This document shows, in pieces, positions 31,915 through 37,243 of a stretch of 64,000 bases of DNA. Position numbers and translations under genes: made by a program. The notes beneath the pieces were generated by a model. That model ran no database searches, was not told where the DNA came from, and saw nothing but the letters and a program-made list of their open reading frames with translations. The stretch comes from Rhizodiscina lignyota (Eukaryota): positions 1,860,001-1,924,000 of the forward strand of contig ML978123.1 of assembly GCA_010015805.1 (NCBI GenBank). Reading direction: 5' to 3'. Position 1 is the first letter of the stretch; each line of letters begins with the position of its first letter.

Positions 31915-32565
31915 CTAAGCAGGCATACCGGAAATCGTAGTATCATTGCTTGAGATCCGTCCCCTGATGCGCAGCTCAGTATCACGCAGCACATTTTCCA
32001 TCTGTTCCCTTTCCAGCACTGTCACCATTGAATCCTGGGATAGATCCAAGCTGAAAGAATCAAGACCATGAAAATGCACTGCACTCTCCAGCAGGATATT
32101 TGTGTAGTACCGGACCCACGAATAATTTAGAATCACTATAGTCAATTTTAAGTGCCTAAGCTTTCCTGTCGACCCAAAATTGGCAGCAAGGCAATGAAGT
32201 AAATCTCTCGAGGCTCTTTCAATACAGAGCCGTTTGCTCCGGGTGTGCCAGACATAGGGGCCACGAACGTCAAGTCTTTGTATAGCATCAAGGGTTTGAC
32301 GACCGAAGAGCTCGACAATCCGTTTCATGTCTCCTAGCGTGAAGGAGACAGTTTTTGTGCTGAAGAAGAAATGCAAGGCTTCGTTTCGTATTTGTCGGTT
32401 CGTGTGAATCAAAGTGAAGACATCTCTTGGGTCGGATGACGCAAAGTGGGAAGATCGACATAGGTATAGGTGACTCTCGGGTGCGTAGGATTCGTAAACT
32501 CGAAGTCGGAGTTCGGTGGGGAGATCGAGAAATCGAAAAGGGCTGGCATTTGCATCGCCCGCCAT
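31915..32565 (-). CDS. F-box-like hypothetical protein
   Basis: MAGDANASPFRFLDLPTELRLRVYE and LIHTNRQIRNEA: the FLDLPxELRxxIY ... L..NRQIR.EA pattern of lineage-expanded fungal F-box-like proteins; single exon. Confidence 0.7.
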   Translation of the reverse strand: MAGDANASPFRFLDLPTELRLRVYESYAPESHLYLCRSSHFASSDPRDVFTLIHTNRQIRNEALHFFFSTKTVSFTLGDMKRIVELFGRQTLDAIQRLDVRGPYVWHTRSKRLCIERASRDLLHCLAANFGSTGKLRHLKLTIVILNYSWVRYYTNILLESAVHFHGLDSFSLDLSQDSMVTVLEREQMENVLRDTELRIRGRISSNDTTISGMPA

Positions 32566-33767
32566 TGGTTTTGTAGTTCGACTGTGCTGAGGATAGCTAA
32601 GGTCCACGAAGTGGGGTTGAGGTGAGAAAGTTAGAGAGCTCCGTGTGCTGAAAGGGAAATATTTATAGTATCCCAAATGTGTTATGATGCCAAGGAAGCT
32701 TGACGCTGTTAGTGTTTGTGTTACGTGCGATATTCAACAAGAGGTGAAGAGGAGAAGGTGAGTGTGGAAGAAGCACGGTGAGAGCTGAAGAAACACGAGC
32801 GCCAAAGTTTACAGTAATATCGAAATTCCTTGACACTCCGCGTACCGACCTTCGACTGTGTTTGATTAGCTAAGTGGCGTCATGAGATCTCAAGCAAGTT
32901 GCATAACAACACTGTGTAAAACTATGAACTTCAGAGCTGCACGGCGAGTTCCGCTGGGCCGATTGAGGAAGCCAGTAACACGTTCAATACCAGATAGGAG
33001 AAGCAGGGTCTTCATCTGCAGGCAGAAACACCACGGGCATCAACTTCTCTTGCACAAACCCCCCTGTCCCTGGAAAAGCGTTGAGTCTATCAATACTCTC
33101 CGTGATCCGCGAATGGGAGCTCAGGTCTTCGCCCTCCGTAGCCGCAATCAATTGGACGAGACACCCTCAAGAGGCGGAGGTGAACAGGAGTATCAAGACA
33201 CGACAGCAAAGAACATGCCTCCTTCGGTAGGGACAGCGAAAGAGATCTCAAGTATAACTCTGCGCGAGGCCGTAGATGAAAGTAGACATTGGTACATGAG
33301 CAGTCATTGGTACTGATTTGAACATTCACATACTGGACTGGAAACTTAAAGAGCAGCTAGACTTTAAATTGCATCTCAGCCAGACGTATGACGACGAACG
33401 AGGAAGGGCTTTTGGCGGCAATAGTGCCTTTCAACCACCAGTGTGCCTTGCACTTTTTGTCGGCGGCGATGAAAGCATGTTGATTGCTTCAGGAGTCCGA
33501 TCAAGCCTGCCACTCCTGTTGATTCTCATCGTAAATGGCTCCGAGCTGGACCTATTTCTGGCTGTCGCACTATCAATTTCTCATGTTTCATAAGCAAAGT
33601 TTGAGTATCTGCTGCTGCTCTGTGCGTTGTGGATGTTGACGAGTCACGAGTGTCGGAGATGATGAGGTGATTGAGGAAAGTGTTGCTGCCTAGCGACTCG
33701 CCGCTGATTCGCCCAGCCTCCTCCGAGCGGTCGAGCCCCGCAGCAGCCCAAGCTCTTTTTTCCTCCC

Positions 33768-33774
33768 TATATAA
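33768..33774 (+). promoter_or_regulatory. TATA box of the U1 snRNA gene
   Basis: TATATAA ending ~43 nt upstream of the ATACTT start, with a pyrimidine tract in between. Confidence 0.7.
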
Positions 33775-33816
33775 CCAGCCCTTCCTCCCTTTCGAATCGC
33801 CCTTTCCTTTTCTCTC

Positions 33817-34024
33817 ATACTTGTACGTCAAGTTGCCTCGCCCCCCCGAAAATTTCGAACTTTTTGCTGACAATGCTCACAGACCTTGTTGGGAACACCG
33901 TGATCAAGACGACGGTCGTTCTGTCAGTGCCGCCTGCATTGCACAACGCGGAGTGGCACTGGTATGAATCTCCTTCGGGGGCTTCACCGGCGCAATTTTT
34001 GCTGGCTTCCATCGCAAGATGACC
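33817..34024 (+). ncRNA. U1: U1 spliceosomal snRNA interrupted by a 60-nt spliceosomal intron
   Basis: Exon 1 ATACTT (33817-33822) plus exon 2 ACCTTG.. (33883-) gives AUACUUACCUU; stem-loop I ACCGT-GATCAAGACG-ACGGT (U1-70K loop); loop II ATTGCAC 33938-33944 (U1A site); stem-loop III with C(UUCG)G; Sm site AATTTTTG 33994-34001; stem-loop IV CATC-GCAA-GATG. 3' end approximate. Confidence 0.95.
33823..33882 (+). other. U2-type intron within the U1 snRNA
   Basis: Donor GTACGT, T-tract then branch point GCTGAC 33866-33871, acceptor CACAG ending 33882; size and signals match the mRNA introns in this window. Confidence 0.92.
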
Positions 34025-34649
34025 TCTTTTCATTGATGCTCCTGCCTGGCGTGGGAGGTTGAGGAAGGGATAGGGTTATCAAGCATCGTAGTCTAGCAGT
34101 ATTACATCGATGACAATTCTGGATTAAAGTTCCGCGCCTTATTGTGCAGACATACTGTGATGTTAAGTTCACTTTGATCACCGCGGCTAAGTGGCCACAG
34201 TGGTAACGGTGTGCTACCGACGGTACAGGAATTGAAATATGTACTCTGTCACAAAGTCTACCTACATAGAGTGCGAATTCATTCCCTCATTGGGGTACGA
34301 GCTCATGCGACGCAAATTTGTCTGGTGGTCGAGTATTTGGCATTACGAGGCCACTTTGACCCGAGGGCGATACAGCCCGTGCGTTTCGCTGGACGAAGGA
34401 TGGGTTCTTCACAGCGTTATATTCAGCGTTTAACATGCAGATGCAGACACCACTGCTCCGTCCAGAATTTCATTCCATTTCACCTATCTATTCTATGTGC
34501 ACACCGATACCCAAACGCCAGTTGCCTCGTTTGCGCCGCGGCTCGTAGCAAACTTTTACTTCGGTGCCAAACCTCCCACCAAAAAACGCACAAAGGGTAA
34601 TAGTTACTAGAGTACAAAGAAGCTTCATGAAAGATTACCTCGCTCAATC

Positions 34650-36691
34650 TCAATCCACCTTGATGGAGCCATATATCTTCAGGATGAACACCCACGCTGC
34701 AAAAAAGCCAATTGTGCCTGTAAAGCGTCAGCATTGAGGGTGACTTTCCACAGCATAGGATAAGACTCACCAGTGAGCACAAAGAACAAGAAGCTGATCA
34801 GCATGCTGTATCCTAAATACAGCACACCGCTCGTCCAGCTGGTGAAGCTCAAATCCTTAACCCAATAAATCATCGCGTAGATGAAGACATAGACTGCGCT
34901 TGCCCCCGCCGTGCCGAACGCGCGCCACTGCCAGTGATAGTTCTCCGCACAAAGCAAGAAGTAAATCATGAGAACGGTGATGGCGGCAGACGTGATGATC
35001 ATGAGTCCGAAACAGATAAAGAGGAAGCCGAACATGTAGTACACCTTGCTGAACCAGATACTCTTCATGATGAAGTACAGTTCGACGAAGATGGCACCAA
35101 AGGGCAGGACGCCGGCAAGAAGCATGCTTGGGATGGGGCGCATATATCCACCGCTTGGTGGAATCTGCCTTGGGATTTGGTTCGTCCTTGTGGGCGGGTC
35201 CGCGACGCGTGCCTTGAACCCGAGCCATGAACCAACGACGGACAGCGGTACGCTGATGACGAACCACATGATGACTAGCAGAAGCATGGTTGTGAATGGC
35301 ACAGCGCCAGACGCTCTGCGGGCCCAGACGAAGAGGTTGAGAAGGAAGAACACTGCAAAGACAATGCCGGGCAAGGCAACAGGCGTGTAGGCAAAGTTTT
35401 GTTTCCAAGCATCGCCGCCGAAGAACTTGTACACGCGCGCCGAGACGTAGCCGCCGACGAAGCCAAAGAGTGTGTAGAGGATGATCATTACGGTTCCGAG
35501 GAATCCGCGACTTGATGGACTGAGGAATCCCAGAAGTGCAAAGGCTTTGAGAGGTTAGTGAATTGGGCAGGGGGGAGAGTAGACGCTCTGCATACCAATT
35601 GTGAAACCTGCCATCATGAAAAGCTGCGCTCCGTTACCCACGAGCACACTTAGGAGGAGTGCATGCTTCGGAGGTCTGAAGACGTCTCCATGCACAAGTT
35701 TCCAGCCAGAGTCTTCTTGAACGCCGTCCTCGGCAACGCCAGTGCCTGACAAATCCTCCATTGCAATGTCTAACCGATTGTACCTCGCAAAATCTTTTCG
35801 TAGAGTACGGATGAGGATAGTGGAGACCATGCCAACTAGGAAGACAACGATGACCGCAGAGTTGATGAGGGAGAACCAATGGATACGCGGGTCGTAGACG
35901 TGCAGATACTTGTCCCATCTCGTAGCAAAGGAGGTTGGCGATGAGCGCCAATACACGCCGTACGTGAATGTGACTTCAGTGGGCGCATTGTTTTCCAAAT
36001 ACTGAGGAGTAGCCTCCTCACCACACTCAGCCTTATCCTCACTAATGTACTTGTTGGTTCCTCGTGACGAGGGCTTAACCTCGATTCCAACCACTCGGAA
36101 GGCATCTTTGCTCGCCTGATGGAACTCAACGAGAATGTCGTAGTGATTGTTCAGAATTGGTCTGCCGTCGACGCCCGACCCTAATGGGAACCCAATAGAT
36201 TCGTACAATGTGTCCGTCTGCAAGTCCTTCATGATCTGGCCCGCGGGTAGCCCATCAATCAGCCAGTTGATATCGTAGCCCTGTCGTATCCTCTGGTTTA
36301 CGAATACCGCGTGGTCGGGTTCATATTTCTGACGCTTACACACCGGCTTGCATGTCTCGTTAACACCCATCTTGAGCACGAACGGTGACGTCTGTATGCG
36401 GTCGCCAAAGAGGATGCTGCCTAGCGATTCTGATATCCATTTTGGTCCGTCTTTCGGCGCGCAGAAATGGAAGGCTGGGTGGTAGTAGTCGTAGGCATAG
36501 ACGGAGTGCACCTGCGCTGTGCCTTCTATGTCGGCGGGTGTCAGGGCGTTGACCTGTAATGGCACTTTGTCGCCGAACTTGTAGTTGGTTGGAGCGGCGC
36601 CAGGAAGGTAGAACGCGGACGCTGGAGTAGGTGTGAGGGAGAGGAGGGTAGAGAGCACGGAAAGCGCTGGCTGCGTATCTCGTAGTCTCAT
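34650..36691 (-). CDS. EMP70: Transmembrane 9 superfamily protein (nonaspanin)
   Basis: Signal peptide then FYLPGAAP, SESLGSILFGDRI, RIHWFS, EDSGWKLVHGDVFRPP, TNQIPRQIP, C-terminal IYGSIKVD; two introns. Confidence 0.95.
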
Positions 36692-37243
36692 CTTGCGCGC
36701 CGATTGTGAGCCGTTTGCAAAGCTGACTGCGGAGACGACGTGGAAATCAATCAGGCGCCCCAAATGGGCGGAAAAGCGTCAGCGGCCAGAGCGGTGGAAG
36801 TAAGGAGTGGTTGTTATGATTGACGGCAAGGCAGTTGCTTATAGAATCGGAAGAGAGGGCATATAAGAAAACGTAGTGGTTTCGTGAAGAAAGTTTGTGG
36901 GAAACTTATATGGCATGCGAGAATGAAGCTCGAGTCGTAAAAGTTACAGCTGTACGAATTACATGCCAAGCATTTCGGCGTCAGGGGTCATGCATATCAC
37001 TATTTCTGCAGCCCAGCCTTGGTTCGCCTGGAGAGCTGACATCTTGAGCATCAGGATGTCTTTATTTCTTCTTGTCTCTCATATTTGCATCAAGCTGCGC
37101 CACTCCAAGTGCACGCCATGACAGCGTGTATCGGAAGAACTAGAACTACAGTGCCCTCCCTGCGCCGAAAAAGAATACCTTCAATGCCGTGATATCATGG
37201 GGAAAAAGAGTTGATCGCTTTAGTTTTGGAGACCATGAAAGCA

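Follow-up and report, generated by a model that had tools for sequence, protein, structure and literature searches.

Introns of the mRNA type interrupt several kinds of small RNA gene in fungi. For U1, the precedent is the gene of the basidiomycetous yeast Rhodotorula hasegawae, which carries such an intron 'in conserved sequences' (Takahashi, Tani and Ohshima 1996, J Biochem 120:677, as cited in the accessible part of the review PMC5855946). In the literature searched, outside the coverage of which most subscription journals fall, no other U1 intron is described, and the original prediction for the locus discussed here, which knew of no characterised case in the U1 of a filamentous ascomycete, agrees with this outcome. 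Introns are also found in the U6 genes of fungi (Tani and Ohshima 1989, 1991; Canzler et al. 2016). According to section 14 of the same review they are canonical and lie near functionally central sequences, and the accessible text adds that some species carry U6 paralogs with and without introns, splicing being mostly without experimental validation. What sets intron insertion in snRNA genes is called unclear in that section, which also considers that paralogs with and without an intron might serve regulation, and names the choice between neutral and regulatory snRNA introns as an open question. For the U3 snoRNA, the available part of PMC5832005 places the introns in the 5'-most stem-loop, reports them from most Pezizomycotina and finds them to vary between paralogs of one species. 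The earlier statement that fungal U6 and U3 genes are known to contain mRNA-type introns is in keeping with both accounts.

Two surveys of small RNAs, one in Aspergillus fumigatus and the other in Trichophyton rubrum, include U1 and, in the accessible portions of the two papers (PMC2377427, PMC3890542), mention no intron. The A. fumigatus U1 cDNAs are 132 nt long and the listed loci span 179-180 nt (PMC2377427, Tables 1 and 3, as far as accessible), while the T. rubrum U1 'cDNA' is given as 196 nt over a 196-nt genomic span (Table 1 in the available part of PMC3890542). As a side observation, the lengths tabulated in these parts of the two papers leave room for an unnoticed intron of approximately 50 nt.

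The locus found at 33817-34024 of the forward strand of the window (the whole 64,000-nt stretch of DNA that was analysed, to which all coordinates refer) is, with good confidence, a functional-looking U1 copy belonging to a multicopy fungal family and containing a U2-type GT-AG intron between nucleotides 6 and 7. As in R. hasegawae, an mRNA-type intron is thus located in a U1 gene, but the present gene appears to stem from a different fungal lineage, of presumably Pezizomycotina-like character, and its intron is common to at least nine further distinct environmental U1 genes and coexists with intronless paralogs. The intron of the R. hasegawae gene reportedly also sits in the 5' arm. With A. 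fumigatus U1-1 and U1-2, as presented in the accessible part of PMC2377427, the gene shares the order of the stem-loops and the small size of the product (approximately 130 nt by northern analysis there, 148 nt predicted here). The features of the locus are the following.

33748-33753, + strand: CCAAGC element, a candidate promoter-proximal element at about -69 from the start (putative function)
33768-33774, + strand: TATA box TATATAA, at -49 from the presumed start
33817-33822, + strand: exon 1, ATACTT, the first six U1 nucleotides, with the presumed cap start
33823-33882, + strand: intron of 60 nt, spliceosomal-type, as indicated by its signals, by the paralog that skips it and by the same-site metagenome introns
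33823-33828, + strand: 5' splice site GTACGT, from the sequence
33867-33871, + strand: branch motif CTGAC, with the branch A at 33870, from the sequence
33880-33882, + strand: 3' splice site CAG, from the sequence
33883-34024, + strand: exon 2, from the Rfam alignment and the covariation among 11 genes, the 3' end being set where the model alignment stops, at 34023-34024
33883-33888, + strand: remainder of the 5' arm, ACCTTG, from the sequence
33902-33911, + strand: loop of stem-loop 1 (U1-70K), GATCAAGACG, from the sequence
33938-33944, + strand: loop of stem-loop 2 (U1A), ATTGCAC, from the sequence
about 33970-33981, + strand: hairpin of stem-loop 3, with TTCG at 33974-33977, from the sequence
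33994-34001, + strand: Sm site, AATTTTTG, from the sequence
34010-34021, + strand: short 3' hairpin CATC-GCAA-GATG, from the sequence
34026-34036, + strand: 3'-flank motif CTTTTCATTGA, a candidate snRNA 3'-end or termination signal (putative function)

Exon 2 also includes helix H. The Rfam U1 model RF00003 was found to match 33877-34023 over model positions 1-166 with 49.1 bits and no truncation (E = 1.8e-11 for a 401-nt stretch, 2.9e-09 for the whole window), and in the E-value scan of the whole window U1 was the sole RNA family matched at E <= 0.01. The tRNA search of the window returned no genes, and the stop-to-stop ORFs that overlap the locus, five in all on the two strands, were without a Pfam match. 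The U1-70K loop, the U1A loop and the Sm site are present in U1 order, and the core letters of these three motifs are invariant among the 11 distinct sequences that were compared. The proposed assignment of the locus to U1 was confirmed by the Rfam score together with the ordered motifs, and rereading of the + strand recovered every listed element at the place originally given for it. When Rfam was applied to the whole window at gathering thresholds no match was obtained, the U1 score of 49.1 being below the gathering value of 69.5, so that default annotation would not report the gene.

It had further been anticipated that a covariance model would probably truncate the 5' end of the gene and miss the intron. 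The intron is indeed missed, but the 5' end is not truncated, six intron bases being force-aligned to it instead: the Rfam alignment sets TCACAG, the last bases of the intron, opposite model positions 1-6, where two of the six agree with the consensus. The RF00003 model, therefore, neither truncates the gene nor sees the intron, and mis-assigns the 5' arm. Joining the exons would alter only these six misaligned 5' positions of the alignment.

The U1 5' arm is split after six bases, ATACTT (33817-33822) being separated by 60 nt from ACCTTG (33883-33888), and the branch A of CTGAC is 12 nt from the 3' end of the intervening sequence. The combination ATACTT-GTNNGT-N35-65-YAG-ACCT has a single match in the 64-kb window, whereas 100 dinucleotide-preserving shuffles gave no match. 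The generic signals GTNNGT..CTRAY..YAG give 25 matches in the window versus 37.0 +/- 7.4 in 50 block shuffles, a comparison that is uninformative on enrichment. When the exons are joined in silico an RNA of 148 nt is obtained, the first 8 nt of which are unpaired in the minimum-energy fold. At the level of DNA and of comparison between genes, the intron reading is supported, and the claim that an intron splits the U1 recognition arm is strengthened at this level by a paralog of the same organism that is without exactly these 60 nt and by 12 metagenome U1 loci that are interrupted at the same site.

Information on other U1 copies was obtained from a run search with 33790-34050, in which four (X24, X1, X3 and X4) of the 24 runs listed were compared with 33650-34150 at 85% likeness. 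X24, with contigs of up to 303 kb, approximately 34 million letters and a flat depth of about 156, is taken to be DNA data of the same organism, and the window itself may derive from it, which makes it non-independent for the window copy; its records 9 and 16 show no differences on the window flanks. Record 10 (21,835 nt, depth 152 versus approximately 156 of the single-copy flanks) was aligned to 33746-33822 with 6 differences and passes from 33822 directly to 33883, so that 60 nt bounded by GT..AG are skipped, with 58 letters on the short side of the junction, in a DNA-like contig. The likeness of this record to the window begins at 33746, just upstream of the region of the CCAAGC/TATA promoter. 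The alignment of record 14 (11,878 nt) starts at 33883 and shows 8 differences over 106 nt; directly before 33883 the record reads ...CTCTTCATACTT, and ATACTT adjoins ACCTTG. A contiguous 5' arm is found in two paralogs of the same organism, record 10 being an intronless U1 paralog with a similar promoter and record 14 a second intronless U1 copy with a different upstream region. Given these intronless paralogs in the same organism, at least two in number, the window copy is not the sole U1 source and could be dispensable or silent. The original prediction had placed against itself the case of an intact intronless U1 elsewhere supplying all U1 while the window copy is silent. An intact-looking intronless U1 was found in the form of the two X24 copies, an outcome that bears on their presence, the silence of the window copy being a separate matter.

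Intron-bearing copies also seem to be more than one. An X24 unitig of 101 nt (33807-33907), which has the whole intron inside, has a depth of 240.6 and two left and two right continuations. The left ones are record 9 and a contig unlike the window before 33807. On the right, record 13 shows no differences from the window, and in record 12 differences set in at 33908. Because the unitig has two contexts on either side, a second intron-bearing U1 copy with an identical intron is probably present. In record 12, the two sides of one pair of stem-loop 2 are both altered (G>A at 33936, C>T at 33949) so that the pair is kept, and G>C at 33908 falls in a loop, on a base that does not vary among the 11 aligned sequences. 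In all, the paralogs of records 12 and 14 differ from the window copy at 33908, 33917, 33923, 33929, 33931, 33936, 33949, 33957 and 33958, and the U1 genes of the organism are best described as a family of sequence variants. Depth sums in X24 reach 2461 versus approximately 156 of the flanks, a figure that is not a copy number and was taken only as a sign of several copies. A loose end before 33932 in X24 shows, in addition, a more diverged U1 copy with GATCATGAAG. The RNA run X1, along with X3 and X4, for which the label of RNA is a guess, matches only 33931-34008, which is outside the 5' part of the gene.

Metagenome contigs were scanned with the pattern ATACTT, GTNNGT, 35-65 nt, YAG, ACCT, 10-25 nt, GATCANGA, and 14 loci (L001-L014) were obtained. 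Twelve of them are U1 by Rfam, with an intron at the same site. Their RF00003 scores are 31.6-52.5 bits (E from 6.1e-11 to 6.5e-05), all below the gathering value of 69.5. The remaining two, L006 and L009, are chance pattern matches with neither a U1 match nor a branch motif, and were kept out of the alignments. L003, L008 and L014 are identical and the last two were dropped, so that the 12 loci amount to 9-10 distinct sequences; L002/L011 and L010/L013 are close pairs within the distinct set. The set of 11 distinct loci used for the comparisons consists of the window together with the metagenome U1 loci after removal of L006, L008, L009 and L014.

The donor, the acceptor and the exon ends were required by the scan pattern and are, therefore, ascertained features of these loci, while the branch motif and the TC preceding the gene were not required. 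Exactly one CTRAC per intron was found in 13/13 U1 genes, its branch A preceding the 3' site by 9-14 nt, and none in the two chance matches. Intron length varies between 55 and 69 nt in the 12 metagenome U1 loci, and the donors are GTGAGT, GTAAGT, GTTAGT, GTTCGT or GTGCGT. Besides the window copy, at least nine distinct U1 genes have an intron at the same site; its splicing signals are conserved among them and its sequence has diverged.

The extent of this divergence is indicated by the mean pairwise identities over 55 pairs: exon 2 gives 0.76 over its first 125 nt, the intron 0.58 and the 80-nt stretch upstream 0.54, the identity of the intron with shuffled intron being 0.48. In the closer pairs intron identity drops along with exon divergence, from 0.88 for L002/L011 (exon 2 identity 0.99) to 0.76 for L010/L013 (exon 2, 0.98) and 0.58 for L003/L004 (exon 2, 0.90). 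The alignment of exon 2 of the 11 sequences folds as U1 helix H and stem-loops 1-3, with 30 pairs in 5 helices; 93.9% of its 330 cells contain standard pairs, and 17 of the 30 pairs show changes on both sides, i.e. compensatory ones. None of 500 column shuffles reached any of the five pairing measures, and when the partners were slid by 1-3 columns pairing was at most 50.6%, the structure having been derived from the same alignment, which flatters this slid control. The 3' hairpin was not alignable across the 11 distinct loci. The window copy keeps all the U1 positions that are invariant in the 11-sequence alignment. Since compensatory changes keep the U1 pairing, the structure of U1 constrains the evolution of the intron-bearing genes, which behave as working genes and not as copies in decay. 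Furthermore, the intron is most likely old, because its site is common to U1 genes the bodies of which are on average 76% identical, and the intronless paralogs would then represent secondary losses.

Several signals in the flanks recur among the distinct loci. The sequence TC, within a pyrimidine-rich tract, directly precedes ATACTT in 11/11, and TATA-like motifs are found at -38 to -49 in six of the 11, with a seventh, that of L004, at -23. Six of the 11 (the window, L002, L003, L005, L007 and L011) have CCAAGC or GCCAAG at -66 to -79, and CCAAGC may, thus, be a promoter-proximal element of fungal snRNA genes. The spacing between CCAAGC/GCCAAG and the TATA box is approximately 20-30 nt, and L010 and L013 have GCCAAGA at -89 to -100. 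On the 3' side, a T-run followed by C-R-T-Y-R (CTTTTCATTGA in the window) is located 131-152 nt into exon 2 in 9/11 distinct loci (the window, L002, L004, L005, L007 and L010-L013). The same motif is found in loose ends behind 34003-34017, both of paralogs (X24) and of relatives (X3 and X4, which are from other organisms), and it is a candidate signal for 3'-end formation or termination of fungal snRNAs. GCCTTG is often seen some 15-20 nt beyond it.

The locus has neighbours on both sides, each on the - strand. On one side there is a 272-aa stop-to-stop ORF (31915-32733) with a weak match to the 2EXR domain (E 1.2e-4, 23.5 bits against a cut-off of 24.8), a family that is not known outside fungi. 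On the other side there is an EMP70 (TM9 superfamily) gene (34679-36778), which consists of two ORFs covering profile positions 2-283 and 281-516 that are bridged by a predicted intron of approximately 51 nt (35545-35595, - strand; GTATGC...CTAAC...AAG, with a non-YAG acceptor). The TAA stop codon of the first EMP70 ORF is inside the branch motif. The EMP70 intron, as predicted, resembles that of the U1 gene in its build, being short with CTAAC near the 3' site. Short CTRAC introns, the 2EXR-domain ORF and the approximately 34 million letters of X24 contigs are what suggests a fungus of Pezizomycotina-like character.

From these features a maturation pathway can be proposed. RNA polymerase II would start at the A of ATACTT (33817), approximately 49 nt past the TATA box, and the transcript would be capped. 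The donor GUACGU, six nucleotides from the cap, would next be paired by a U1 snRNP that is already mature, whether left from previous rounds or supplied by the intronless paralogs; by our own reading, five of the six positions of the donor GTACGT are complementary to the U1 arm. With U2 paired at CUGAC, the 60 nt would be removed and ATACTT joined to ACCTTG to yield a contiguous, single-stranded, donor-recognising arm, and the usual assembly of the Sm core would follow on AAUUUUUG. Only 6 nt long, the capped 5' exon is a very short one, and its splicing is assumed from the conserved arrangement.

The presence of intronless copies with a similar promoter in the same organism (records 10 and 14) lends itself to a different view, namely that the window copy, and perhaps all intron-bearing copies, are silent or decaying U1 paralogs, in which the 60 nt are a tolerated insertion, while the intronless genes do the work. 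The confinement of the RNA and possibly-RNA matches to 33931-34008 and the G>C change at the invariant loop position 33908 of the probable second intron-bearing copy are in line with it. However, the window copy retains its TATA box, start context and 3' motif together with all invariant U1 positions. In the second intron-bearing copy 33936 (G>A) and 33949 (C>T), the partners of a stem-loop 2 pair, have changed jointly, and the branch-point signals are retained in 13/13 genes. Nine other distinct same-site genes keep the U1 pairing by compensatory changes, which decay would not yield, and silent paralogs are, on the whole, an improbable explanation. Even less can be said for the possibility that the 60 nt stay in the RNA, either because a U1-like RNA starts in or after the insert or because an unspliced 208-nt RNA has another role. 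Rfam does align the last six bases of the insert, together with ACCTTG, to the 5' arm with no truncation, and the RNA matches, limited as they are to 33931-34008, contradict nothing in this scheme; but only two of those six bases agree with the model consensus, the full set of splicing signals recurs, spaced alike, in 12 further genes in which the insert has otherwise diverged, and ATACTT is placed exactly so that joining restores the universal U1 arm, an arrangement met in 0/100 shuffles. Retention of the insert is, therefore, regarded as very improbable indeed. The preferred reading remains that of a functional-looking U1 gene with a spliceosomal intron in its 5' arm.

The history of such an intron is a distinct issue. 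The site between nucleotides 6 and 7 might be a hot spot of repeated independent insertion, e.g. by reverse splicing into donor-paired U1, a process by which snRNA introns are explained in the literature, as set out in section 14 of the accessible part of PMC5855946. The introns of distant loci are barely above random in their similarity (0.58 versus 0.48 for shuffled sequences), and intron-bearing and intronless paralogs with promoters differing at 6/77 positions are found in one genome, as repeated insertion would allow. On the other hand, the site is exactly the same in every case, and in the closer pairs intron similarity tracks exon divergence (0.88, 0.76, 0.66), as vertical descent predicts. 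Furthermore, U1 departs before the active site forms (PMC5855946, accessible part). By taking into account both sets of observations, repeated insertion is judged unlikely, and an old intron inherited vertically, with secondary losses giving rise to intronless paralogs, would be the more likely account of these genes.

Among the known systems, the genes of U3 are similar to it in organisation. In both cases a small, capped, independently transcribed RNA is encoded behind a TATA promoter and is interrupted, in its 5'-most functional region, by an intron with canonical splicing signals; in both, a single genome can contain intron-bearing and intronless paralogs, and between clades the sequences of the introns are no longer recognisably alike. 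The difference is that here the interrupted segment is the donor-recognising sequence itself, so that maturation, unlike that of U3, would need its own product. With U6 the gene shares a canonical spliceosomal intron in a spliceosomal RNA and the coexistence of paralogs with and without it, but U6 is a product of polymerase III and part of the catalytic core, whereas U1 is made by polymerase II and leaves before catalysis. For this reason, the argument of 'proximity to active site', as found in the accessible part of PMC5855946, fits U1 less well.

That snRNA genes may carry mRNA-type introns was known, with a precedent for U1 dating from 1996. What is added is the finding of the same site in many environmental U1 genes, the presence of paralogs with and without the intron in one genome, and the fact that default models miss the genes. 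The last point has a practical side, in that a group of fungal U1 genes, those of the window and 12 relatives, is invisible to default Rfam, intron or not. Fungal U1 annotations may, thus, be systematically wrong at the critical 5' end, since such genes are missed by the thresholds and their arm is mis-assigned when a match is forced. From the biological point of view, the U1 5' arm finds donor splice sites, and here that arm would itself be assembled by splicing; the making of this U1 would, therefore, need U1. The locus also bears on the minimum length at which a capped 5' exon can be spliced. The paralogs with and without the intron, sharing near-identical promoters in one genome, provide a natural pair with which to distinguish between a neutral relic and a regulated supply of snRNA, the question left open in the U6 review.

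A broader and rather speculative proposal, to which only a low probability is assigned, is that the intron is an old, clade-wide feature of a large group of filamentous fungi, overlooked because these genes fall short of the thresholds of the covariance models, which also misplace their 5' arm, and kept by selection as a feedback of U1 on U1 or a quality gate. If this were true, part of the U1 pool would mature only by way of pre-existing U1, so that its output would be coupled to splicing capacity, the intronless paralogs would supply a splicing-independent baseline, and few of the capped 5' exons known to be spliced would be as short as exon 1 with its six nucleotides.
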